Below, in pieces: positions 795 to 19,999 of a DNA stretch of 20,000 bases. Made by a program: the position numbers and the translations under genes. The stretch is from Sanchytrium tribonematis (Eukaryota), in the NCBI GenBank assembly GCA_018985235.1, contig JADGIG010000005.1, positions 50,511 through 70,510 of the forward strand, written 5' to 3'. Every line of letters begins with the position of its first letter. The first letter of the stretch is position 1. The notes under the pieces were generated by a model. It was not told the origin of the DNA. It ran no database searches and was given only the letters and a program-made list of their open reading frames with translations.

Positions 795-3700
795 TTATTG
801 CCAAGAGGACATATTTAAACCAAGTACCATATCTTCAATTCTCGTATTAGTAAAAAACTTTTCTCTATAATACTGAATGCAAGCTTCTCTGTTCTTATGA
901 GGAAATAGTTTTTCTTGTTTAGAATCAATCCAAGTTTTGCTAGACATCCGGTTTAATGCCGATAACACAGTAATCAAAATAAGTTGTGGTAAAATTTCCA
1001 TAGGGATTGAACAAGTTCCGTCCAATGGTCCAAAATTTTGAATGTTCTTTCGCTTATACAAAGTCACAAATGCATTTTCGCGATCAGGCCTAATGACAAT
1101 GACAACATCACCAAAATCTCCTGAAATTGTCCATGGCATATATGGAATAGACCCTTCATCCCAAACAATATGAATGCTGTCGTTTCCTATATGTTTTTTC
1201 AAATAACTTTCGCCTCTACCTTGAATAAGTTGATGATCATGAAAAACAATTTCGTTGATTGCTGTAGTGATAATTCTACACTTGTCTTCTTCTTCAAGAC
1301 CTCCAGAAAATCCAGAATAGCTATCTAAATCAATAATCGGAGCTAGTTTGTTTGCAAAAGCAGTGTATTCTGGACTGAATCTAGTAGTTGAAAAGATTTC
1401 TTTTTCTGATTTTGCATCTTTAGCAACAAAAAAGAGACCGGCCTTGAAAGTTTCTCTTCCAAAAGATTTATCAACATTTTTCATCATCTTTTGAATATAG
1501 GTTGTATCTTCACTATACAAGATACCTCGATCTCTAAAATTACCAGTATTGGTTATACCCAAATGAATTAGAAACCTAACTAAATCATCACTCTTTTCTC
1601 GTCTGCCTTAACATCAAACCCTCAGTCACAGCCATTAATTTAAAATAAAAGTTTTTCCGATTCTAAATAAATAAAAAATACTTTTCCAAGCTTGTTTTCA
1701 CTAATTCCGTATCACTCCTTTTAAAATATTGTACTTCTTTCAAATTGACTCTAGGTGAAGTTGGCGCATTGGTCATAGGCAATGGTTGAAATGATAACTT
1801 CTTAGATCTTTCTGTGACATCGTCAATTTGAATCTTACTCGAATTAAAAAGTGTTTTAATACCAATAACATTAGTTGTATTGTTATTTAACAACAGTATA
1901 CTCTTTGGCAAACTTATGCATTTTTGAGGAATTTCTTTAAAATTTGAATCGTATAAATCCGTCTTATTATACAAATGAATCAGACTTGATTGACAAATTG
2001 CACTCAAAGTTTTTAATTCATTGGCGATATGCGCATTTTTGAATGGATTAGGTTCAATCTTGGAGAAATCTTCTAATGAAGAAATAGCATTTAATACTGG
2101 CAATATAATTTGCACCACATTAGATTTAGATTTGTATAAACAGCAACTATCTACTAGAAAGAAAGCCTGCTTTTCGATTAATCTAGCTCGAATAAGTTCT
2201 CTATCATGATCAGCGATTATGATACGCTTTTGTTCCTCAAGAGCTGTGACCATTTTACAAAGAATATTCAATAATAAATCCCCGTTGGAAATGCTGTTAA
2301 TAACATCAAAACAGCCATAGGTTAATGTATAGAGCAGATCGATGGAGCTATTCATGATTTCAATATTATCAGAACGACTTAAAATCAAACAATGACTAAC
2401 AATATCTTCAAGGTGCTTAAGGTGAGTTCCTTGAACATCTTTGACATTAAATTTTGCGACTGCATACAAGCCTAAAAGTTTCATTGAGTTGCAAATAAGT
2501 GGAACGTTCTCATCTTTCGAGATTTCTTTATCACGTTGCTCATAGAGCAATACATACTTTAAAAGATAGTTGATAATAAATTCGTGATTCAAGTCAGTGG
2601 AATCAGCATATAGAAATAAGTCTTGGCCAAGTCTCCAGAAATAGCTCAAATCCAATTGTGATTTCGATTTTAAGTCCTCTAAAACACTTACGGCTTTTTC
2701 TTTCTTATTAGAAGCAAATAAAGCAGCCATTAATTTAAAATAAAAGTTGTCCGATGAGATACTTTGGAGCTTCTCAACTAAGTATTTTGGTTTTAGCTGA
2801 TACAAAATATCAAAAATAAACAAAACCGGTGCAGCCGTGTCTGGTGCGCTAAAAAGCAATTCCAGATAATCCATATTTCCAAAAATATATTTGTCGACAA
2901 GAAACTCCGCGTGGTCGAATAAACTGGCATTCCTATTAGTCCAAGCAGCGAGCACTACCCGAAAAAGCATTTTTACTTGAGTTTTTGCAATAATTCTCTT
3001 TGCGGTAACACTCAACTTCAAATTTTGTGATTTTGCGAAAAAATCCATCATCAAGTATGTTGTTTCTCTGGTTAATTTCGTTTTCTCTAGAAGATTATAA
3101 GGATAATACCAGTTGGACGACCATTGTGAATCTCCTATTTTTTGGGCAGCTTCCACTGTAAAATACTCACTTTCAGTAAATAATTTATGGTTCGTTAAAC
3201 TAAATGTTTCTAATGCTTTTAAATTGAAGATCTCATTAGCGTTCATGTGTTTTAAAAAGGCAGAATATGTAATATCGCTCCATCTTTCAATAATGTAATC
3301 TACGAAATAAGCTCCTTGAATATTTTCGATCTGGTTCAAATGTGACTGAGGGTTTGATGTTAAGGGTACGACCAAAAATACTGTAGCGAATGATTCAGAC
3401 AGTGCAATCTTTTCCATGGTGGACGTACTGTTTTCATGAACAGATGAATAAATACTTTGAAAAACATGTATACAACTTCCGCAAATCATGTCCCAATCTG
3501 TATTTGGGGTTGAAAAGCATCTTTGAACAATACCTCGAAGAAAGTATAAGACTCTACTTACACCAGCTTGTTGCAAAGTATCAGAGCGAACATTGTTTAA
3601 AATTTGACATAACGTCGATACATCTTTTTCCTCCTGTTCGTGCCAAAATAATCGAAACGAGCTATCCTGAAGCCATCTTTGCAAAACATTCCAGCCCCAT

Positions 3701-4608
3701 TTAGGCTCAACAACCGTCAACTTTAAATCACTTTCAGCAGCATGTTTTAATGCAACCTGACAAACCATTCCAACCGCAGAATTCCAAATAAGTTTGTACG
3801 GTTCACCGAATTTTGATTCATGTGGAATATCACTATGCAATTTAAATTTCAACAGACTTACCCATGCAGGAAGAGGCTGCTGGACAATTAAATTCATATA
3901 TGGCGTAGCAATACTTTCTAAAATTCTAGGGTCAGGCGAGGAAGATTTTGTACCAGAATAAGAGTAGCCAAAATGATGTACTAGATCAGGCAAGTAATTC
4001 TTCACGACAGAATCCAACAACACTTGAACCAAATTACGTAGTCTTGTCCAACAGAAATGAGATGGTAAAAATCTGTCTCCTAATGCCAACGTAAAGACTG
4101 AACCACCATGCGCCCAGAGCTCATTTCTCCTTATTGTTTGAATTTCGTGATACAGGTATGGCGACGCAGCCACTATCAAACTTAAGGCTGCTGAGGTAAA
4201 CGCGACTTGCTGGTCGATGTTTAGTTCAAATGTCTTAAATGTGCCAGATGAGAACATAGTAAGAGCCAATATTGGCATCCCATCTTCAGGCTTTGCAGCA
4301 ATAGAAAACTTGATAAGATCTTCGAGTTTTGAGTCAGTCTTACCCATGGAATCACTCCATAACAATATGCAAAATTGTAATACTGCCCATTTTTCGGTTG
4401 AGTTATCATGTATAAGTGCAGTCAGAACATCAGCCGCATAATCTTTTATGACTAAGGCCAACTCTCCTTCAAAAATATCGGCCTTTAAAGGAAAGATCTC
4501 GTGATGAAACTCCTTGGCTAACTTGGATTTCCTATCGTCCACTTGACTGGCGTACTTCTTGTATTGTTTTGACTTCTTACCAGCTAGGTTTAAATTGGAA
4601 GAACTCAT
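795..4608 (-). CDS. RalGAP-alpha/tuberin-like RapGAP-domain protein; exons 4608-1682 and 1662-795, with a 48-nt stop-containing insertion at 1606-1653
   Basis: C-terminal RapGAP domain: RETFKAGLFFV, FSGGLE, EIVFH, KKHIGND (Asn thumb), GDFGDVVIVI, FGPLDG. The upstream motif VRFLIHLG is in frame with it. The 19-nt intron puts the long helical N-terminal ORF in the same frame as the GAP ORF. First in-frame ATG is at 4608. As assembled, four in-frame stops fall inside the insertion. Confidence 0.75.
1606..1630. repeat. 25-nt exact inverted copy of 3341-3365
   Basis: CCTTAACATCAAACCCTCAGTCACA is the reverse complement of TGTGACTGAGGGTTTGATGTTAAGG at 3341-3365. Confidence 0.95.
1629..1653. repeat. 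25-nt exact direct copy of 2724-2748
   Basis: CAGCCATTAATTTAAAATAAAAGTT occurs at both loci; both are followed after 1-2 nt by TCCGAT (1656-1661 and 2750-2755). Confidence 0.95.
1663..1681 (-). other. 19-nt spliceosomal intron (phase 2)
   Basis: GTATTTTTTATTTATTTAG; fits the consensus of the six other introns; splicing puts exon 1 in the frame of the GAP domain. Confidence 0.8.
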
Positions 4609-4787: not shown

Positions 4788-6153
4788 TTAAGTGATGGAG
4801 ACTCGCTTTTGAACGTCTTCTCTTTTCGTCATTTCGCTAGATTGTTTTATAATGCCGCGTTTCTTATTTTCGGCTGCTTGAATAAGTTTGATGTATTCAA
4901 ATGTAGTTTCTCCCATTTCAACACTGTCCATTCCTTCTTCATATTGCTCGTCATTTAATTGTAATTTCAGTCCCGGGATTTTTCCCATAACGTATAAAAT
5001 TGCCACAGTCCAACAAAATGACCATGCCCCACATACAATACAATCTAAAATTTGCCATCCTAGTAGCTGATATTCTCCTTCAATAATACCACTATATTGA
5101 ACAGAAGTACCATCGAGAGCCGGCCAGTATCTTTCGCAAAATACTCCATTTAAAATATTACCGACGACACCTCCAACCCCATGAACACTAAATACGTCTA
5201 ACTAAGTTAAATTAGATTACAGTATCATCAAATCTCATTTTTTCCTTAATTTTACCGCTTAAAAAGCAACAAACTGCTCCTATGTGCCCAATTGCAATAG
5301 CACTTGAGGGCGACACAAATCCAGCGCAAGGCGTTATAGCTACAAGACCACTTATTGCACCTGCGCAAAATCCGGTTGATGTTATTTTTCCTTTTTTCAT
5401 AAAATCCATAATCATCCAAGTCATAGAAGCTGCTGCAGCGGCTAGATTAGTCGCTACAATTGCAGCAGTTGCACGTCCATCAGCCTTTAATGCACTACCG
5501 CCATTAAATCCATTCCAACCAAACCAAAGTAATAGAGTTCCTAAAACAACACTGACAGGGGAATAAGGATCTCCAGATTGCTGTTTTTTGTTTTTTCGCT
5601 GTCCAACCATTAAGACATAAGCCAATGCTGCAAAACCACTAGAAATATGCACTGGTGAGCCACCAGCAAAATCCAAGACTCCATTTTTGAATAACCAACC
5701 ATTTGCGTTCCAACACCAATAAGCGATAGGATCATAGACAATAAATGACCAAATAAATACAAAAATAAGTTTAGGAAACATTCTAGCTCGGTCAGCGGCG
5801 CCTCCGATAACCAATGCAGGCGTTATACATGCAAACGTTGCCTGAAAAAATACAAACGCGTATTCAGGATATGGGCTAACTCTAGTAATATCTATATTTT
5901 GGAAAAATGCTTTGTCAAAAGCACCAATAAAACCACTACCATTTTCTGAATAGACGAGTGAATAACCTGCAAAAAACCATTGCATCATTACAATTGAATT
6001 AGCTATATAACATAATAATAGAATTGATAATGCAGATTTTTGATTCGTAAGTCCAGAGTAAAAGTAACCCAAGCCTGGTATCATTATAAACACCAAAACC
6101 GCGCTTAACAACAAAAAAGCTGTATTTCCATCATAGTCATCAATCTCGACCAT
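4788..6153 (-). CDS. Ammonium transporter, Amt/Mep family; exons 6153-5221 and 5201-4788, 448 aa
   Basis: MIPGLGYFYSG, FQATFA, DFAGGSPVH, LWFGWNGFNGGS, GLVAITP. Splicing gives FDDT|LDVFSVHGVGG, supplying the second conserved pore His. Confidence 0.95.
5202..5220 (-). other. 19-nt spliceosomal intron (phase 0)
   Basis: GTAATCTAATTTAACTTAG; removal rebuilds the Amt motif DDTLDVFSVHG. Confidence 0.95.
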
Positions 6154-6322: not shown

Positions 6323-7063
6323 CTAATTTTTTAACTCCGTAATAGGTTCGAGACCATCAGAAATTCTCTTGATATTAATTTCCTCTAATGTCAATGTTGG
6401 TAACGAAAAATCAATTTTCTCAGGAATCTTTGTTTTTTTCTTAAAAAGCTTCGACGCTTTATTTTTACTATAGCCATGCTTTGCACTAGCCTTGTTTTTG
6501 ACATTGATGTCTGGAACAGCTTGAGTTTCGTTTTCTTCAACACTGTCTTCATCATTCAAAAGCTTACTAATCGGAGAAACATACAACGGTAAACCGTAAA
6601 TATCTTCAAGTACAGCACGTTTCATTATTCTCGGCAAAATGATACTACACACTCTTTCTTCATTTAAGAGTTTATCGATGAATTCGTCCATGTGTATAAT
6701 CTGAAATTCTGATGTGGTCCTATATCTGAGTTTTTGATATTTTGAGAAAAATGGTTCTAAAGTTTGATATATTGATGATGCATCCATCGTCATTCGAAAA
6801 TACAATAAGCCTAATGCAGATAAGTATTTAAAGGAGCTGTTGTTTATGTAGGCTAAAACTATTTCTTTTGAGGGTTTTATTATGGAAAGCCTATACAACA
6901 AACAAATAAATTCTGAAGCTTTTTGATTACCTCCAAAAGTTCCACCTACATATTGAAGTTTTACAGCACGATCCACGATTGTAGCTGCATTTAAACCGAA
7001 GCACATTTCCTTATAATAATTTGATTGTAGAATTCTATGAACTACAATTTCTTCAAAAATCAT
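6323..7063 (-). CDS. PRP38: Pre-mRNA splicing factor Prp38 (PRP38A-type)
   Basis: RILQSNYYKEMCFGLNAATIVDRAVKLQYVGG, FICLLYRL, FKYLSALGLLYFRM, HMDEFIDKLLNEERVCSIILPRI. Confidence 0.92.
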   Translation of the reverse strand: MIFEEIVVHRILQSNYYKEMCFGLNAATIVDRAVKLQYVGGTFGGNQKASEFICLLYRLSIIKPSKEIVLAYINNSSFKYLSALGLLYFRMTMDASSIYQTLEPFFSKYQKLRYRTTSEFQIIHMDEFIDKLLNEERVCSIILPRIMKRAVLEDIYGLPLYVSPISKLLNDEDSVEENETQAVPDINVKNKASAKHGYSKNKASKLFKKKTKIPEKIDFSLPTLTLEEINIKRISDGLEPITELKN

Positions 7064-7077
7064 GTTTTACAACTCCT

Positions 7078-7942
7078 TTATTGAGAGAGCGATTGCATAT
7101 ATGCATACCTTACAGCGTGCTCTTTCCAACTATGTTGTAATTCCTTGGCATCCACTATCGAGTGCCAATCTTTCGTCATACTTTTTCTCCAAACTTTCAG
7201 AGCTTCAATCGGATCCGCACTTAAAGACATCAAAAACTCGTACCGGTATTGTTCATCTAGCATTTTGGATTTTAAAGCAGACATAGCTTCCGAGGTATCT
7301 TTCGATTCAGGATATGAGAGATTGGCACTATAAACGGTAATCAATTTTTCTAAATTATTGAAAATTACCACCGGTATCCTCCTTCAAGTCGATTACTACC
7401 TTGTCAATTGATTTGGTTAAAGTTGAAATCTTTTCATCCAAGACATCTAGGGTCAGGCTATCCCGCTTGAAAATCTTTTTAAGCATTGAATCACACTGAA
7501 TAATATTATCGTGGAAAATTTTATGTAAAGTTGCATACTGAATAATAATGGACTCGATATAAGCTAAATTAAAGGCCACATCAGACCCCACAACAATTTC
7601 CATAAACTTTTTTAACTCGCCTATAGGTTGCACCAAAGTTCCAGAATTTAATTCTAAAACTAGTGATGAAGGGCGCGAAGGACGTTGGCAATTGAATACA
7701 GATTTTGGATGTGATTCAGTAGGCTCATAAGTCACTTTTTCGTCGGCATATATAATTTCCATTCTTGTTATGTAAGCACTTAAATGTGTACATGTAATAT
7801 TTAATGTTTTATCTTTAATTTGCCATTTCAGTAGTTCGCGGTGACCTTTTAAAGGCATGGAATACAGCTGAGACTGCAGTAATAAGTCCAACTTTGAATT
7901 CAACGCATTTATGGTGTCAATTTTGCTTTGCAAAGGAAACAT
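7078..7942 (-). CDS. SWI/SNF-RSC subunit, Snf12/BAF60 (SWIB domain)-like, shortened; exons 7942-7369 and 7349-7078, 281 aa
   Basis: SWIB-like IIQYATLHKIFHDNIIQCDSMLKKIF; C-terminal RYEFLMSLSADPIEALKVWRKSMTKDW and WKEHAVRY resemble the BAF60 C-terminus. Confidence 0.75.
7350..7368 (-). other. 19-nt spliceosomal intron (phase 1)
   Basis: GTAATTTTCAATAATTTAG; removal joins the two ORFs as DTG-E-KLITV. Confidence 0.9.
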
Positions 7943-11101: not shown

Positions 11102-13265
11102 ATGCAACAGATTAATCAATTATCTCATGTAGAATCCACTCCTATACAAATTATTAAATATCTGGATGCAGGTTCATTTTCGCAAGTATTTCTATGTCAA
11201 ACCCCCACAAATCTAGCCGTATTGAAGATCACTTCGTCCCCACCACATATGCAGAGCATTTCTAAAGAGTTAGATATTCTGAAAGCTTTAAAAAAGCAAC
11301 AAAATGACTATCTAGGGGCGTTCCTTGTAGGATATTATGCTGGAGAGGTCACTCATAGTCATGCATGTTTATTATTAGAATACTGCAAAATGAATCTTGT
11401 TCAATACATGAATAGCATGATGCCAAATCAATTTCCCATCACAACCGTGCTTCATATTATGTATGATATTTCACAGGCCTTATATTTCTTACACGCAAAT
11501 GGCATTATACATAGAGATGTTAAATTAGAAAATGTTTTGCTAAAAGACCAAAGACAATCTGGAAGCACATATACACCAACCTATTGTCTTTGCGATTTTG
11601 GCAGTTGTACAACTAAAACTATTCCATATAATACGTTACCTCATAACGTTGAAGAAATCAAATATGATATTGAGCAATTCACCACACTGCAATATCGGGC
11701 ACCTGAACTTATCGATCTTCATCTTAGAAGAGGAATTAGTACTAAAGTGGATGTATGGGCCCTTGGTTGCTTATTGTTCAAACTCTTGTATTACCGAAAT
11801 CCCTTTGATAATGAATATGGAATTTTGAGCTACAATAATAATATTACACAACTTCTTTTACAAACAAATAAAACTATACCCTTGGAAGTCAAAGCCATGC
11901 TTGAAAAGAGCTTGTGGACCGATCCAGTTGATAGATGGAACGTTTGGAATGTTTTAAGCCAGTTATGTGAAATCAAAGGCTCAAACTGTCCATTACAAAA
12001 TATTTTTCAGGAAGAACAGATACAAAGGCAAACAGTGGCACCCGCTGATAAAAGCGTTCATCCTTTGATAAAGGCTGCCACCAACTCCCAACAGGGATTG
12101 CTTAATCAAGCAGTAGGCATGACTGATCTGGCTCAACAAAGAAGGGCAAATAGAGCGAAAACTCATCCTGTTGATTTAAACGCATCCCTTGTTGATTCTT
12201 TTGAGGATTCAAACAAATTCCCATCATTAGAGAAGCTAAATTCTCCCCGTATTTCTACAACTTCAGCAATACCAAGCCTGCCTCAAACTGATATGTTCCC
12301 GGATTTGGACTCGTTTGAAGCATCTTACGGAAATCGATCCAGTGTACCGGCACCACTTTTTAATCAGTTTGAGCCACAAAGCGACTCAAATCTTTCCCCT
12401 CAAGGAAATAATTTCTCAAGCGGCTCAAGAAAAGCCAGTCTTAAGCATTCAAACATAGTTGATGATCCAGCATTACTTCTTCAAAACATCATCAAATCCA
12501 CAGACCTTGAGGATATTGGTTTACTTTTGAAGTGGTCATGGCAAAAATATCACGCAAAAGAAGACCCCATAGCTTCAATTCTCGCCCAAATTAGAATTTT
12601 GATGGGACAAATTGGGGTTATCACTACTAATGTTCGAAGTGTTTTTAGAGCATGTCTTGCCCTTCATTCTTTATTATTATATGGCCCCAGCACTGTACCA
12701 AGCCAATCTAATTTGGAAAGTGTCTTGCAGTCATTAGAAGGATACCAAAATAGAATGTCCAGTTTTTATGCAAGGTATCTGCGGGAGTTTTGTTCACTTT
12801 TAAAGCAAAATAGTATGAGTGGTCGATATCGAGGTGGCAAGGCAAGAAATCTTACCACTTTAGCGAGAGCCATTTTGACTCACATTCAAATTCATGTAGA
12901 TAGATTTTTAAATATGAGAGAAGCTATGGGTGCTAATAGCGATATTGGATTGTGTTTGTTTTTGTTCTCTCAAGATGCAATGATGGCAATTGCTTCCGTT
13001 TCTGAAATGATTACAAATGGTATTTATTTTTGATTTAGATGTAGCTATGTCTGCCTTTGTCAAGCAAGCCATCAAGAAAGTGGCGGAATTAATTGATAGC
13101 TCTATTCAGTATTTCGAGCCATTACAAACGGAACTTCCTTTAGCTTTTGCCATGCTACAGCATACCAGAATATCTCTCTCCCCTTCAATGTACATACCCG
13201 AGCCTAAAGATGGAGAAATTAATCTAGAGGAAGATTTTCAAAAATTTTGGTGGGTATTCGCTTAG
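11102..13265 (+). CDS. NAK-family (Ark1/Prk1/AAK1-like) Ser/Thr kinase with C-terminal ANTH-like region; exons 11102-13019 and 13039-13265, 714 aa
   Basis: HRDVKLENVL, LCDFGS, NAK-typical TTLQYRAPELIDL, KVDVWALGCLLFKLLYYRNPF. Confidence 0.88.
13020..13038 (+). other. 19-nt spliceosomal intron (phase 1)
   Basis: GTATTTATTTTTGATTTAG; removal joins the two ORFs as ITN-D-VAMSAF. Confidence 0.9.
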
Positions 13266-13298: not shown

Positions 13299-13799
13299 CT
13301 AAAGAAAATCAGACTGATTTAATTCTTTGAATAATTTTGGTACAGTCGTTATCATATCTGGCTGGTCCTGCAAACTTCTTATAATTGCAGTTCTCCAAAC
13401 TTGATATTGAGGATCATCAAATTTAATTGATTCCCAATTATCGGGTAAAATATATTTTTCTTTAGATTCTACGAGCGGCCTGATTCTTGGTCTTAAATCA
13501 TTTTCCTTGGCTGTCAAGGATTCATTTGTTTGGTTTAAATTCTGACTCGCTAAATTGTGTTGCGACTTTTTGACACCAGGTCTCTCTGCTGGTATTGGGC
13601 GCTCTCTAGCAACGGGTGTTGGCTTAGTCTTATTATTTGCTGGAGATTTTTCGGCGTAATACAAAATTTCTTTTGAACGGGAGACATTATTTGGAGATTC
13701 TGAATTTTTCTTGTTAAGCTGCTGTGGTAAGCTTTCTTGCATTTCTTGAACTAAATTGATAATTTCAGCTATTATCTGTGACTCTAATTGATCGCTCAT
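13299..13799 (-). CDS. Hypothetical protein (166 aa)
   Basis: ATG-initiated ORF filling the gap between two genes; helical N-terminus, low-complexity middle, compact W-containing C-terminus; family not recognised. Confidence 0.7.
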   Translation of the reverse strand: MSDQLESQIIAEIINLVQEMQESLPQQLNKKNSESPNNVSRSKEILYYAEKSPANNKTKPTPVARERPIPAERPGVKKSQHNLASQNLNQTNESLTAKENDLRPRIRPLVESKEKYILPDNWESIKFDDPQYQVWRTAIIRSLQDQPDMITTVPKLFKELNQSDFL

Positions 13800-13874: not shown

Positions 13875-15210
13875 CTACAAATTCAGCAATGTCTTATCTA
13901 CCTCAGAAACAACTTTAACTGGAACCAACCTCCTGGTCACTAGTTGGAAAAACGAGCCAAAAAACAACATTGAAGCAGTCATGGTTAAAGTTATCACATT
14001 ATAGGGCATACTGAAGTCTGGTAGTGGTAATGTTGTTATTCTATTATTGCCATATATGTGGATGTTATCAACTTTAAAAGTAGCCGGACTATGTTAGTAC
14101 AATATACCCGAAATCTAACCCTCTATGAGCGTCAGGTTTGTATTCTTTGTAACGTAAAAATCCCTTCTCAAATTCAATCGAAAAAGTCAACTCTGACTTT
14201 GCTGGAACTTTTAAAAAATAATGTAGCACCGCTGGTTGTATTCTATCCTTACTGGGAAGGAAAAGAAAATTTTCTAAAAATGTTTCATTTCCTGACGATA
14301 ATTTCCACTTAGATGTATGCAAGTATAAACGAAAGTACCACGGAATTTGCTCATAATATTCAAGAGCAAGTGGAAAATCGTTATTATTTCTTAAAACAGT
14401 AATTAATTTGCCGGAATCATCTCCAAAACCACCTAACCAGCTGGAAGACACAAAATTGTGATAAGTTTCCATCTTTGACAATTCAGAAATTGGTGAGACA
14501 TCAATATTTTCCAAAAGGAAAACTCCGTCTTTTAATCTAGATTTAACATCAAATGGTTTAAAGGGTTCATATTTAATATTTAGCGCCAATGGTGGACAAG
14601 TTTCTATTCCAGAAATCTCCAACTTCAACAAACTGTTCAAAGTCTTATGTTGTTCTTTTCGCAAAATAGACTGAAAAAATATGTTGGTTACGTAAGACCC
14701 ATTTTTGAGTGTGCTCTTTAGGCTCATGCTGTAGTAGTAGCCATCAAATAGTGCAAGTGGATTTAAAAGTTCCGCTAATCCCATTCTTTTGCTACAGGGC
14801 AACAATTTGATAAAAGGTGTCAGATTTTCCGTGCATACAGCTTCTTGAGGCAATCTACCATGGAAATAGTTGCCAAACTTATTGACACTTTCAATCGAAG
14901 TTAAACTTGCACAAAATATGCCACTTAACACAGAATAAATTTGTTTAAGTGAAGTTTTTGAGTTAACTAGGATATTAGCGCCTACAGGTGATATGTTATT
15001 CATCCAATTACGGTCAAGTTTTGGTGAAAGACCTTTCCCAAATTGCAACTGCAATTCGCTTACATTTAATTTCGTCATGATATCAGATATTTGGGTACTT
15101 TGAATATCATTGAATTCGAACATAAGTCCAACCGCGTCATTAGGCTTATAAATTTCTACATTAGGGTATATTGTTAGCACTTCGGTTGCAAAAATAGGCA
15201 AAAAAAACAT
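13875..15210 (-). CDS. GPI16: GPI transamidase subunit Gpi16/PIG-T; exons 15210-14108 and 14088-13875, 438 aa
   Basis: LSGIFCASL, LPQEAVCTENLTPFIKLLPC, EYKPDAHRG; exon 2 (missing from the ORF track) encodes LPLPDFSMPYNVITLT and the C-terminal TM helix. Confidence 0.93.
14089..14107 (-). other. 19-nt spliceosomal intron (phase 2) with a perfect TACTAAC branch sequence
   Basis: GTATATTGTACTAACATAG; removal gives RGLDF-G-PATF and leads into the conserved PDFSMPYNV. Confidence 0.95.
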
Positions 15211-15233
15211 CTCCTGGGTTTTAAATTAGGTTT

Positions 15234-16547
15234 ATGACTATTTCTCATTTAAACCGTCAAGGATTGCAAAGCGATCTTGCAATAAAAGTACACTGCGATC
15301 ATTGCGCCAAAAATGTCAGTGATATAGTGAGAGTCAAATGCGCTGAATGTGAGGATTTTGATCTTTGCGTTGAATGTTTTAGCCAGGGAAAAGAAATGAG
15401 AGACCACAAAAATACTCACGACTATCATATTTCTGATCCATTAGCATTCCCTTTATTCAAATCAAATTGGACCGCAAGCGAAGAACTGCTTTTGTTAGAA
15501 GCAATTGAGCAAAAAGGAATGGGAAACTTCAGCGATATATCAATCTACTTAGGGTCTAAATCAACCCAAGAATGTAAAGATCATTATTATGAGTTGTATT
15601 TGGACAGTTCTTACTATCCAGTTCCTGATTTAAGGCATTTATTGCCGAATATATCCTTGATTCCATATCGCGAACCCCAAAATCGAGAATTACCTCAAGA
15701 ACTAGTTCAGAAACCGACACCATCAGTACCAGCTAACCATGAAGTTGGAGGATACCTGAGTGGTAGAATGGAATTCGACATGGAGTACGATGCTGAAGCA
15801 GAAAATATTGTGAAGGACTTGGAATTTTTCAACGATGACACAGAATTAGAAAGAAAACTTAAATTTACATTGATGGAAATTTATAACCGCAGCTTAGATC
15901 TAAAGTATCACCGCAGGCAACTTTTGTTAGAGCGTGGATTATTAGATTACAAAAAGAATGCAATGTTAGAAAGAAAAAGAAATCCTGAAGAAAAAGCAGC
16001 TTTGCATTTGATGAAGCCTTTTTCAAAATTCATATCTGTAGAAGACCATGAAGAATTGTTGGACGGATTGGTCAGATCGGCTGTAATTAAGAAAAAAATT
16101 AATGATATTCGCACGAAGCGAAGCTCGAAAAACTTGACATTTGCACAACTGAAAAAAAAGGAAGACGATCTCGCACTAAAGCAGCACACTTTTACTTCAG
16201 GTCAATTTATTATGAATGCACCTATGTTGGAAGGCCCGCCTAGTCTTTCAGCGACACCTCCACCGTTTTCACCTTCGAATTCTACGCCAAATTTACTGGA
16301 TATCAAAACGATGGATTTCTACGACTTTTTAGATGATAATGAAAAAAAATTCTGCGCGATTAGTCACTTGGCGCCAAAAGTCTTCTTAAGCTTTAAAGAT
16401 TTAATATTTGCGGGCGATGAAAACATTAGTAGGCAAACTCTAAGAGAAAAATTAAAATTGTCCGAAGCACAGTCGGATAAAATTTACGATTATTTTTGTG
16501 CAGTAGGTGCAATTTCTAGCCCTGAAATTGTGATGATGGATGATTGA
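15234..16547 (+). CDS. ADA2: Transcriptional adaptor Ada2 (SAGA)
   Basis: ZZ finger (CDHC...CAEC..FDLCVECF), SANT (WTASEELLLLEAI..GMGNF), GRMEFDMEYDAEAE, C-terminal SWIRM-like KIYDYF. Confidence 0.95.
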   Translation: MTISHLNRQGLQSDLAIKVHCDHCAKNVSDIVRVKCAECEDFDLCVECFSQGKEMRDHKNTHDYHISDPLAFPLFKSNWTASEELLLLEAIEQKGMGNFSDISIYLGSKSTQECKDHYYELYLDSSYYPVPDLRHLLPNISLIPYREPQNRELPQELVQKPTPSVPANHEVGGYLSGRMEFDMEYDAEAENIVKDLEFFNDDTELERKLKFTLMEIYNRSLDLKYHRRQLLLERGLLDYKKNAMLERKRNPEEKAALHLMKPFSKFISVEDHEELLDGLVRSAVIKKKINDIRTKRSSKNLTFAQLKKKEDDLALKQHTFTSGQFIMNAPMLEGPPSLSATPPPFSPSNSTPNLLDIKTMDFYDFLDDNEKKFCAISHLAPKVFLSFKDLIFAGDENISRQTLREKLKLSEAQSDKIYDYFCAVGAISSPEIVMMDD

Positions 16548-16590: not shown

Positions 16591-17581
16591 ATGGTCAATA
16601 TGAAGCATCTCTCACTTGTGACGCTTGTTGTCCAAAATTCTATGCTTGTATTGATTCTTCGGTATTCCAGAATCGCTAGCGATTATTTATCGACCACCGC
16701 CGTTTTAATGTGCGAAGTTTTGAAATTATTAATTTGCTTTGGTATTTATCTTAACGAGGCTGATGAAGTCGGAACTCCAAAGACGCCACTAGCTAAGCTT
16801 CAAGATATTGCTCATCCAAAGCACCAAAGTTGGAAATTAGCCATTCCTGCTTGTTTATATGCCATTCAAAATAATTTGCAATACGTGGCTGCATCTAACT
16901 TGAGCGCAGCTTCATTTCAAGTCATATACCAATTGAAAATTCTAACAACTGCGCTTTGTTCAGTTTGGCTATTGAATCGCAAATTGAGTATGCAGAAGTG
17001 GATTGCTCTAATAATTCTTACTGTTGGCGTTGCTTGCGTACAGTACAAAGGCGATAGCACTAATAATGAGAAAGGGAATTCGACTATTGGATTCATGGCA
17101 GTTCTTACAGCTTGCATGCTTTCAGGATTAGCTGGTGTTTATTTTGAAAAAGTACTTAAAACAACCAAAACTAGTTTGTGGGTCAGAAATATTCAACTGA
17201 GTGCTTGGTCTTTAATACCAGCTAGTTTTGGATGTATATTTGTTGATGGGGCAGCCATCAAGAATGAGGGATTTTTCGTCAATTACACTCACTGGACCAT
17301 TTGGGCAATTCTCTGCCAGGCATTAGGTGGACTAATTGTTGCGCTTGTAGTCAAAGTATATATAATTTATTTAGTACGCTGACAATATCTTGAAAGGCTT
17401 TGCCACTTCTATATCAATCATACTGAGTAGCATAGCTTCAATTTTCTTGTTTGGATTTGAAATTACATTATTATTCTTTATAGGGGCTTCTCTTGTGATT
17501 TATTCAACATATATTTACGGTTTGCCAGATAAGACTTCATATTTACCGATCAGAAAACAAGATACCAAAGGTGGCGAATAA
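16591..17581 (+). CDS. Nucleotide-sugar (UDP-galactose-like, SLC35A/Gms1) transporter; exons 16591-17355 and 17375-17581, 323 aa
   Basis: [56 protein letters not shown]; splicing rebuilds [15 protein letters not shown]. Confidence 0.93.
17356..17374 (+). other. 19-nt spliceosomal intron (phase 0)
   Basis: GTATATATAATTTATTTAG; removal rebuilds the SLC35A motif [10 protein letters not shown]. Confidence 0.95.
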
Positions 17582-17583
17582 AT

Positions 17584-19999
17584 TCACTCATTATGACTAA
17601 AGTAATGCATTCCATGATGCATTTCTGGTAAAACTTTAACTTGCATACCTTTTGACGGCCGTATTAACAAGCTACTATGATCATAATCTATAAAACAGTC
17701 TGGTAAAAGCAACATTCCTACTTTAAGTGGTTGCAATTGAAGTTTGATACTATCCGATTTTTGCAACCTTTTTCTAAACATTCCTTTAATAATCCATTCA
17801 GGTCTATCTTCTATGTGTGCCACATAGTTCAGTGCATCTGTTTCGATTTCGTATTCAACATTAAAAATCTGACTAACATGGTATACTTTTTGCTCAAATT
17901 TGTGGGTTATCTTAAAGGTTTCTGGTATAGTTCTCGGAGGTTTAATCACTTGATTTAATTCACAAGGAAATGACACATCTCGAAGGTCGTTCGTGAGCAG
18001 AGGCGCTTCAAAGTCTTTTAAGATTTCTTCGATATTGATATGTTTTTTAAATTCATCCGGCAAAATTTTGAAAAGGTCTTGCAGATCAGAGAATTGAGCA
18101 AAAGCTTTTTCTGCAATGTGTACGAAATTGACATGAAGCAAGAACTGAAATTTTAATTCATGCCTAAGAGCATTGGGCAATTTTACAACTTTTTGAATAT
18201 GGCCTAACATTTTTTGAAAAATGACTAAATAAATAAAATTTACAGCTATCTATAAAGCTGAATTGCAAATCCAGCTCGTAGTTGTCTTTAAAAAATATGT
18301 TGTACGTTTCACTTGGCAAAATTGTGAATTTTTCATATTCATTCAGCTTATGAACAAGCATTGCAAATTGACTAGTATTTTTAAGCATAAGATTATTCGC
18401 TGTGTGAACTGCCTTTACTTCCATTAATATAGGTTCCCTATAAATAAATATTTCTTCGACGCTACAGACATGATTTTTGCCAATGGCGTCGTCAAATGAA
18501 AATATGCAATTTACAGTAGAAGTTTTGGATATATTCACATTTTTTAACTTCAAGCTAAATTCTGCTACATTGCTCATCTCAGGAAGTATGATTGTTCCAT
18601 TTTGCTCGATTTGTAATGGTTTCTCATTTATATGACACAATTGCGGTATGATTGACTTTGAGTCGTGCTTCGTATGTAAATTGAACCTCCCATTTATAAT
18701 GTCGCTTAAAGGGCCACTTATATGAATTCCCAGTTGGTGAGTGTCGTCAAAATATTCAAAAAATTCAACATTGAATGCTGAAATTATAGGTGGAATCTCG
18801 ATGATAATGTTGTCACTGTAGTTGATAAAAAATTTAATCTTGTCTAGCAGAAAATTGTTGCAGACAAGTTTGTATTTGCCAGTCGGAATAACGTACAGAC
18901 TGGTATAAGTAAGAAGCGTATCGCCTTTCAGATCTAGCAAATTGCAACTAAGAGTGTATTGCTTTTGATTTGTCAAAGATTCAATTGTTAAAACACTCTT
19001 GGAAAAACGTATTTTGAATTCGAAATGATTATGAAACAAAATATCCAAGCACACCAAATTATTAACTTCTTTCACGGTGTTAGGCACTACCTTGGGCATA
19101 TGAAATATTTGCAGCAGCTCATATTCCAATTCATTAGTTTTGAGCTCCAGAATTTGATCCCATAAATTTTTAACATCTTGGAGATATAATAGTTGCTTTG
19201 ATAACTGTCTTAACAACACTTTACATTTTTCGTTAGTGTTTTTAAGGAAATCAAAGCACCTAAACAAGCTGGACAGCATATCATTTCTCATTTTATGAGG
19301 AAGCTCAATTTGGCGAAAGGAAAGCAAATTTTGAAGATATCCTACTGCTTCATCGTAATATTGAAGAATTTCATAGCAAACAGCTAGCTCTTTCTTCATT
19401 TTTATTGCATGTCTTTGCATCCCAATAGTCTCATACTTTTGGGCTGCACTTATACAAGCAGTCTCAATAAAATCAATGGCATTGTTTCTATTGTCCAAAA
19501 TCTCGAGAAAGAGTGCAGAAGTGGTCGACCATTTCATTTCGGGATTTTTCTGGATAAGGGATTTGACCAGCTGCACCTGATAGTGACTAAGCTCTCCAAA
19601 ATCGCTTTGCAATTGAAACACTTGCTGGTCATTAAGGTGAGTAGACGTCACTGCTCTTTTTAAATAGTTCAAGATTGAATTGATTATAGATACCTTCCAA
19701 GAAACTACAGATTCTTCTCCCAGCTTAATTTTGTTTCCATAGTTGATAAGAAAACTTTTGACATTTTTAGAGATATCTTCTGGTGTGTTTCTGAAATCGT
19801 ATATTAGGACTTTTTTATGCAAAATATAGTGAATAAAATCGAAATCACTTATCTTTGCTTCTAATATTAATTGTTGATAATTCTTATTTGGAATATCTAT
19901 AAGATTTATATTTGGGTTAAAGTCTTTTTCAGATTCAAATCTAGATATTTGCTCATAGGCTGCCTCAATTTCTTGGTACTCTATTAGTGCTTCATAAAA
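17584..19999 (-). CDS. TRAPP II subunit Trs130/TRAPPC10-like, 5' end outside window; exons >19999-18244 and 18224-17584
   Basis: Frame is open to the window end (FYEALIEYQEIEA, ISDFDFIHYIL); C-terminal WIIKG...LQPLKVGMLLLP...QVKVLP resembles the TRAPPC10 C-terminus. Confidence 0.8.
18225..18243 (-). other. 19-nt spliceosomal intron (phase 1)
   Basis: GTAAATTTTATTTATTTAG; removal joins the two ORFs as IDS-F-IFQKMLG. Confidence 0.9.

Follow-up and report, generated by a model that had tools for sequence, protein, structure and literature searches.

The GPI16/PIG-T gene of Sanchytrium tribonematis, an algae-parasitic sanchytrid fungus of the phylum Sanchytriomycota, is interrupted by 19 nt that start with GT and end with TAG. 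This raises the question of whether so short an element is an ordinary spliceosomal intron and, if so, where its branch point might lie and what kind of spliceosome might handle it. We analysed the 20,000-nt stretch of S. tribonematis DNA that harbours the gene, hereafter called the window. Positions within the elements are numbered 5' to 3', with negative numbers counted from the 3' end.

Seven 19-nt elements and their genes

The GPI16 gene is encoded on the (-) strand. Exon 1 (14108..15210) and exon 2 (13875..14088) were delineated from the ORFs and the Pfam matches. They flank the phase 2 intron GTATATTGTACTAACATAG (14089..14107, 19 nt), which is supported by the reading frame, Pfam and related proteins. 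The Pfam Gpi16 profile is matched over 372-488 and then 502-559 on either side of the intron. All four close relatives of GPI16 break at the same site, and the database protein P0001 corresponds to exon 1 read through as far as the TAG of the intron. The start of exon 2 is backed by the read-through tail of a relative, with 26 of 31 residues compatible. When splice choices were compared by homolog alignment, removal of 19 nt came out at the top of nine frame-open alternatives, tied with removal of 67 nt (108.7 vs 108.5). As claimed in the earlier note, the intron contains a perfect TACTAAC branch-site consensus (14093..14099, (-); intron positions 9-15), whose predicted branch A is found at window position 14094, i.e. 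at position 14 or -6. This motif is predicted to pair fully with the branch-recognition motif of U2, and we infer from the sequence that it serves as branch site. With 438 aa, the spliced product is far shorter than distant homologs (550-640 aa). Among named homologs, those of Amoeboradix gromovi are the nearest, with 64% identity for GPI16 and 78% for the nucleotide-sugar transporter described below. The predicted start codons of GPI16 and ADA2 are divergent and 23 bp apart (window 15210-15234).

The consensus GTAW-N7-T-N-A-Y-W-TAG, previously read from seven aligned introns, has exactly seven matches in the window compared with 0.12 expected, and none of 200 shuffles reached seven. This test is circular, as the pattern was derived from the same seven elements; restoration of the reading frame represents an independent test. 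Six of the seven elements join two ORFs in frame once the 19 nt are removed, whereas the seventh does not join its ORFs.

Two of these six putative introns, both of 19 nt and in phase 0, are in genes for transporters. The ammonium transporter (Amt) gene harbours GTAATCTAATTTAACTTAG (5202..5220, (-)), with Pfam matches over 1-305 and then 305-398, and the nucleotide-sugar transporter gene harbours GTATATATAATTTATTTAG (17356..17374, (+)), with matches over 3-266 and then 267-315. Both spliced proteins align gap-free to their homologs, and in both cases 19 nt is the best of 15 frame-open GT/GC-AG alternatives. Named Amt paralogs are from A. gromovi and S. tribonematis. The other three introns are also 19 nt long, in phase 1, and were identified by frame restoration. 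They are found in a SWIB-like gene (7350..7368, (-), GTAATTTTCAATAATTTAG), in a gene that codes for a kinase and an ANTH-like region (13020..13038, (+), GTATTTATTTTTGATTTAG) and in a TRAPPC10-like gene (18225..18243, (-), GTAAATTTTATTTATTTAG). The SWIB match is weak (E=0.016), and PDB sequence searches with the two exons of that gene returned nothing significant. The TRAPPC10 match, in the last exon, is weak as well (E=0.027). The region 11102-13265 (+) codes for a protein kinase, presumably of the Ark1/Prk1 type, and a weak ANTH-like match (E=0.13) comes after it without a change of frame. It is possible that a kinase and an endocytic adaptor domain are fused there.

The seventh element, GTATTTTTTATTTATTTAG (1663..1681, (-), 19 nt), matches the consensus where a 993-codon ORF ends, and its removal leads to a stop codon nine codons on. 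An intron of 79 nt with the same donor (1603-1681) would join this ORF to a Rap-GAP ORF (795-1607, (-)); this longer candidate, which ends with CAG, likewise carries T(-8) and A(-6). The element may be a terminal intron whose last exon is short, or it may mark the beginning of the 79-nt intron. No pair of short introns (12-30 nt) joins the two ORFs around it, and none of 150 Rap-GAP proteins is similar to the 993-codon ORF. The Rap-GAP ORF is devoid of a start codon of its own near the conserved N-terminal part, and it needs the 79-nt intron, an intron of an unusual kind or a single-base assembly error following an ATG upstream. In a relative, the GAP part corresponds to a 282-aa protein.

The earlier note had described T12 and A14 as invariant. 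Shuffling of positions 4-16 within each intron bore this out for the A column (p=0.002) and for the T-N-A pair (p=5e-5), but the T column is not significant by itself (p=0.31). Column counts gave no +5 G in any of the seven elements, as had been proposed, with A or T at +5 and mostly T at +6. The gap from A(-6) to the AG is 3 nt (Y-W-T) in all seven, and there is indeed no space for a polypyrimidine tract. Approximately 0.31 of the intron bases are A. Beyond the splice signals, A/T richness is the sole thing that the seven elements have in common, and the exon ends of the window introns carry no compensating AG.

Other candidates were discarded. A 21-nt one (+13445-13465) is antisense to an ORF and joins nothing. 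Five other 19-nt GTA…TAG strings lie within intact coding frames; T12 and A14 occur together in none of them, and A14 in three. Relaxed scans of the window for elements of 14-45 nt yielded eight more matches, none of which coincides with a junction of ORFs on their coding strand.

The six frame-restoring introns are located at 0.68-0.90 of the coding sequence (P=0.016 for all of them being in the 3' half), one of the genes being 5'-incomplete. The motif scan of the window identified no element near gene starts. This 3'-ward placement is the reverse of what is reported for Stentor and yeast, in which introns have a 5' bias.

Introns of related proteins

The window ORFs are present in EukProt in read-through form. 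In unspliced ORF calls the C-terminal tails run into the intron, and we deduced the intron bases of relatives from the amino acids of these tails. The set comprises 24 close relatives (seven of the transporter, 13 of Amt and four of GPI16), which represent four intron sites and are not independent. We call those not assigned to a named species sanchytrid-like on the basis of identity and the common break, not of a tree; P0005 is at 37% identity. The intronless S. tribonematis Amt paralog P0153 and the cluster duplicate P0258 were excluded from the set, and a tally of distant Amt homologs based on a loose motif was excluded from the break evidence.

A GT-compatible codon is present at the break in all 24 relatives. 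All seven close relatives of the sugar transporter break at the same site as the window gene, as do 12 Amt relatives, whereas P0139 breaks elsewhere in Amt. A set of 112 more distant homologs of the sugar transporter includes three chytrid gene models with a break at this very codon of the transporter. Thus, at least one of these introns is likely to be ancestral and to have shrunk in place.

In 12 relatives, the intron length is fixed by a readable downstream exon, at 19 nt in nine and 20 nt in three, although five of the 12 formally permit a longer end at a stop codon, without exon support. All six frame-restoring introns of the window are 19 nt long, the 79-nt candidate being a possible exception to this uniformity. 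Of the 12 relatives, 11 force A(-6), one leaves the base free and none contradicts it. Position -5 is a pyrimidine in all 12, and -3 is T in 11. With A at its frequency in the intron bases, 11 forced A out of 11 would have a probability of ~3e-6 if the cases were independent, or ~0.01 if the four sites are counted. Two further relatives end at a stop codon that would be the TAG (21 and 19 nt), and both force A(-6) and T(-8). For the remaining relatives, five tails stop at codon 5 and give no length, and five are uninformative. The A stays at -6 while the length is 19 or 20 nt, and in one case 21 nt; it thus tracks the 3' end. The claim that the branch point is at A(-6), fixed relative to the 3' end, with a predicted 14-nt loop in 19-nt introns and a Stentor-like geometry, is likely to hold.

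A +5 G is ruled out in 22 of the 23 readable tails, and +5 is T in 19, in line with the window. The A at +3 is not universal, as P0005 has C. Among nine phase 0 introns of 19 nt, four have a Thr codon (ACN) at -10..-8 and all have a pyrimidine at -9, which matches the WCTRAY branch consensus. Both named A. gromovi tails of fixed length force ACN-AAY-YTAG.

The S. tribonematis Amt paralog P0153 has no intron at the common site. The Amt relative represented by P0139 and P0258 has a 19-nt intron upstream of that site, and its tail fits a CTAAC-type branch site. In scans of JGI metagenomes, the GPI16 alignment gave 364 pattern matches, none of which was confirmed, and a degenerate pattern for the Amt tiny intron gave no match.

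Putative branch point and splicing machinery

Based on these sequences, we consider it probable that the 19-nt GT…TAG elements are ordinary U2-type spliceosomal introns that have shrunk to 19-21 nt, with A(-6) as the branch point. They have GT…YAG ends, six of seven restore the frame, and all three that are testable by alignment align best at 19 nt. Pairing with U2 GUAGUA with a bulged A is perfect for one of the seven window elements and partial, with G-U pairs or mismatches, for the other six. Like the constrained branch-AG introns of Yarrowia and Trichomonas, the elements have a fixed spacing and no pyrimidine tract after the branch; they lack the strong, near-invariant branch consensus of that kind, the motif being perfect in one of seven. 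They also resemble ultra-short uniform introns, nearly all of which are below about 25 nt, both in the window and in the relatives. GTATCCTT is the 5'-site motif of U12-type introns, and the conserved 5' site of that type is absent from the elements. The near-identical copies at new positions that characterize introner elements were not found either, and an Rfam search of the window gave no hits.

In the mechanism that we propose, U2 would pair with positions 9-15, through matches to TACTAAC that range from weak to perfect, and A14 would be bulged out. In the first step, A14 would attack G1 to yield a lariat loop of 14 nt and a tail of 5 nt; for introns of 20-21 nt the loop would be 15-16 nt. 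Because the A keeps its place relative to the 3' end and sits in a CTRAY-like motif of the fungal type, a 14-nt loop is likely in the 19-nt introns. The first TAG past the branch would dock directly, without scanning or a pyrimidine tract. With a weak 5' site, which consists of GT and mostly A/T, the intron would be defined by the branch-TAG block and a short, fixed span.

We searched for the corresponding machinery in the sister species A. gromovi, using its sheet of the eggNOG table in supplement file 4 of PMC8371127 and KOG/KO identifiers. The proteins of this inventory were predicted without introns, and intron-blind prediction fragments genes. Fourteen of the 19 factors that we looked up have a row. 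The rows include U2AF65, SF1, U1-70K, U1A/U2B'', Prp40, Luc7, a METTL16-like protein and Dbr1, as well as Prp8, Yju2, Cwc25, Isy1, Prp17 and Prp22-type helicases. U2AF35, SF3B1/2 and Brr2 were found by keyword search. In this sheet, U1C, Prp39, SNRNP27, Slu7 and Prp18 have no row (5/19, about 26%), and no K1289x rows, which we take to be SR/hnRNP-type, were found. Absence from this table weighs little, given the proportion of factors with no row, the intron-blind proteins, the use of a sister species and the reliance on look-up identifiers. The early and catalytic core of the spliceosome appears largely conventional in A. gromovi. In the window itself, a gene for the spliceosomal protein Prp38 is found at 6323-7066 (-); its Pfam match begins at profile position 10, and its N-terminus looks trimmed.

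This inventory bears on the earlier proposal of altered U1/U6 pairing and reduced U2AF, SF1 and U1 proteins. The same introns and branch point might be served by a remodelled early spliceosome, in which the 5' end of U1 or the ACAGAGA box of U6 is changed and the set of U1, U2AF and SF1 proteins is smaller. The lack of +5 G in the window and its exclusion in nearly all readable relatives, the frequent +5 T, the exon ends without compensating AG and the missing U1C, Prp39, SNRNP27 and K1289x rows are consistent with such a change, but the U2AF, SF1 and most U1 proteins are present in the A. gromovi table, which goes against the proposed reduction: on the U1 side, the gaps are limited to the first three of those factors. 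Changes of U1 or U6 are not required, since Stentor, with an equally weak 5' site, has a canonical U1 5' end, U2 GUAGUA and U6 ACAGAGA. Canonical snRNA motifs are also reported for other ciliates, with those of U2 persisting across the group (PMC13685798), and myxozoans with 22-27-nt introns are described as keeping the U2 branch-binding region and U2AF. We therefore regard remodelling of this kind as unlikely. It is more improbable still that A(-6) belongs to an extended 3'-splice-site signal read by a protein, with branching at another A. It is true that A/T-rich sequence, several As and a degenerate branch motif are found in most window introns, and that the 3' consensus of C. elegans is extended, with conservation at -6 and -5. 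However, the motif is in register with the fungal WCTRAY, with one perfect TACTAAC, its bases are forced in both named A. gromovi tails of fixed length, and an upstream branch would make the loop shorter still.

As for the introns themselves, the breaks could represent assembly errors, pseudogene lesions or translational frameshifts. The published sanchytrid assemblies are from whole-genome-amplified material (PMC8371127), and the region of 1663-1681 may contain an error. Nevertheless, six breaks have one length and GT…TAG ends, breaks recur in the 24 related proteins from several assemblies, and the sister species encodes Prp8 and Dbr1, which leaves very little room for this reading. A recent transposon-derived, introner-like family or a non-spliceosomal one would account for the uniform length, but the elements share nothing but A/T richness beyond the splice signals, the sequences of the relatives differ and one position is common to chytrids, so that we give such an origin hardly any credence.

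Returning to shrunken U2-type introns branching at A(-6), their branch point would be 5 nt from the 3' end, compared with about 10 nt for the proposed yeast Prp18 ruler. In yeast, the natural minimum branch-3'SS distance is reported to be 10 nt, Prp18 has been proposed as a ruler of about that length, and Slu7 and Prp18 are dispensable when the distance is short (PMC10711555, PMC10158995). In Stentor, Slu7 and Prp18 were not found by BLASTP plus TBLASTN, and U2AF, SF1, Prp16, Prp17 and Prp22 are kept (PMC9505925, Table 1). The likeliest adjustment in sanchytrids might be that the second-step pair Slu7-Prp18 has been lost or has strongly diverged, a suggestion based on annotation that we make with reservations. 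This gap is a better lead than loss of U2AF, SF1 or U1 proteins. Nevertheless, Cyanidioschyzon is described as devoid of Slu7-Prp18 despite long branch-AG distances, and the link between the loss and a short distance is therefore not obligatory.

A broader scenario, which we put forward more tentatively still, is that Sanchytriomycota genomes contain thousands of unannotated introns of 19-21 nt, the shortest modal length in fungi and perhaps in opisthokonts, with a 5-nt spacing below the Prp18 ruler and a loss of Slu7-Prp18 convergent with Stentor. If this is true, it would point to a general rule: once the branch point is fused to the AG, the Slu7-Prp18 module becomes dispensable or a hindrance, and introns can shrink when the module is lost. 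These introns would offer a natural test of whether the module sets the minimum distance between the branch and the 3' site.

Precedents and consequences for annotation

Every element of this organization has a precedent, A(-6) in Stentor and Yarrowia and tiny introns in several lineages. The closest likeness is to the 15-16-nt introns of Stentor coeruleus (PMC9505925), which start with GUA, are A/U-rich, have no +5 G in their commonest form, and place the branch A at -6, leaving a tail of 5 nt, at every length. As in the A. gromovi table, U2AF and SF1 are kept, and Slu7 and Prp18 were not found. Stentor is a ciliate, however, its loop is 10-11 nt as opposed to the 14-16 nt predicted here, and no strong branch consensus is reported for it, whereas a fungal CTRAY-like motif is visible in the window. 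Among fungi, Yarrowia lipolytica (PMC2483917) has its branch motif 2 nt from the AG, with A at -6 and no pyrimidine tract; a branch point fused to the AG is thus already known in a fungus. Its introns are long (median 204 nt) with a strong ACTAAC, in contrast with the weak consensus and 19-21 nt of the window type.

Introns of similar length are known from other lineages. Those of the Bigelowiella natans nucleomorph (PMC6009652) are in the same length class (18-21 nt), with GT-AG ends. Nevertheless, this is a relict green-algal nucleus, in which the branch A is reported as not discernible and there are ~3 introns per gene, compared with ~0.4-0.5 in the window. The parasite Mikrocytos mackini has uniform introns of 16-17 nt (PMC10245619); it is a rhizarian with 224 introns of highly conserved sequence and only 17-19 spliceosomal proteins, far fewer than in the sanchytrid table. 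Microsporidia and Rozella are fungal or near-fungal parasites with short introns (PMC6349667), of about 25 nt in the former, as derived from 76 nt being given as about threefold longer, and of about 30 nt in the latter. These introns are longer than those described here and belong to a separate lineage, and the microsporidian ones are few and poorly spliced. Myxobolids and Dicyema, opisthokont parasites with median intron lengths of 22-27 nt (22 nt in myxobolids; PMC13644364), have a 5' site cut to GTa and keep U2AF. In these introns, the conserved As are farther from the AG the longer the intron, whereas the sanchytrid A stays at -6.

Introns of 19 bases would be the shortest that we found reported for a fungus. 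A survey of introns in 263 fungal genomes (PMC8476143) yielded no minimum-length figure in its accessible parts, and nothing on introns was found in those of PMC10459994. We found no description of sanchytrid introns in the literature covered, in which subscription journals are thinly represented. What is new is the lineage, with unannotated, probable U2-type introns of 19-21 nt and a fixed branch-AG spacing. They would represent an independent origin of spliceosomal introns below 20 nt, in a fungus, with the branch site still readable.

The sanchytrid proteomes were predicted with TransDecoder directly on the contigs, as plain ORFs, and in the accessible text of the article the word 'intron' occurs in a reference title alone (PMC8371127). 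Intron-bearing sanchytrid genes are therefore truncated or split. In the window, about 6-7 of roughly 15 genes bear introns. As a rough extrapolation, 6-7 introns per 20 kb scaled to 11.2 Mb would give ~3,400-3,900 introns genome-wide. Gene counts, 'lineage-specific' proteins and claims of loss for Sanchytriomycota may thus need re-annotation. The GC content of the window is 35.2%, and those of the genomes of two sanchytrid species are given as 34.64% and 36.27% (PMC8371127). Intergenic gaps in the window are tiny, as exemplified by stop codons at 17581 and 17584.
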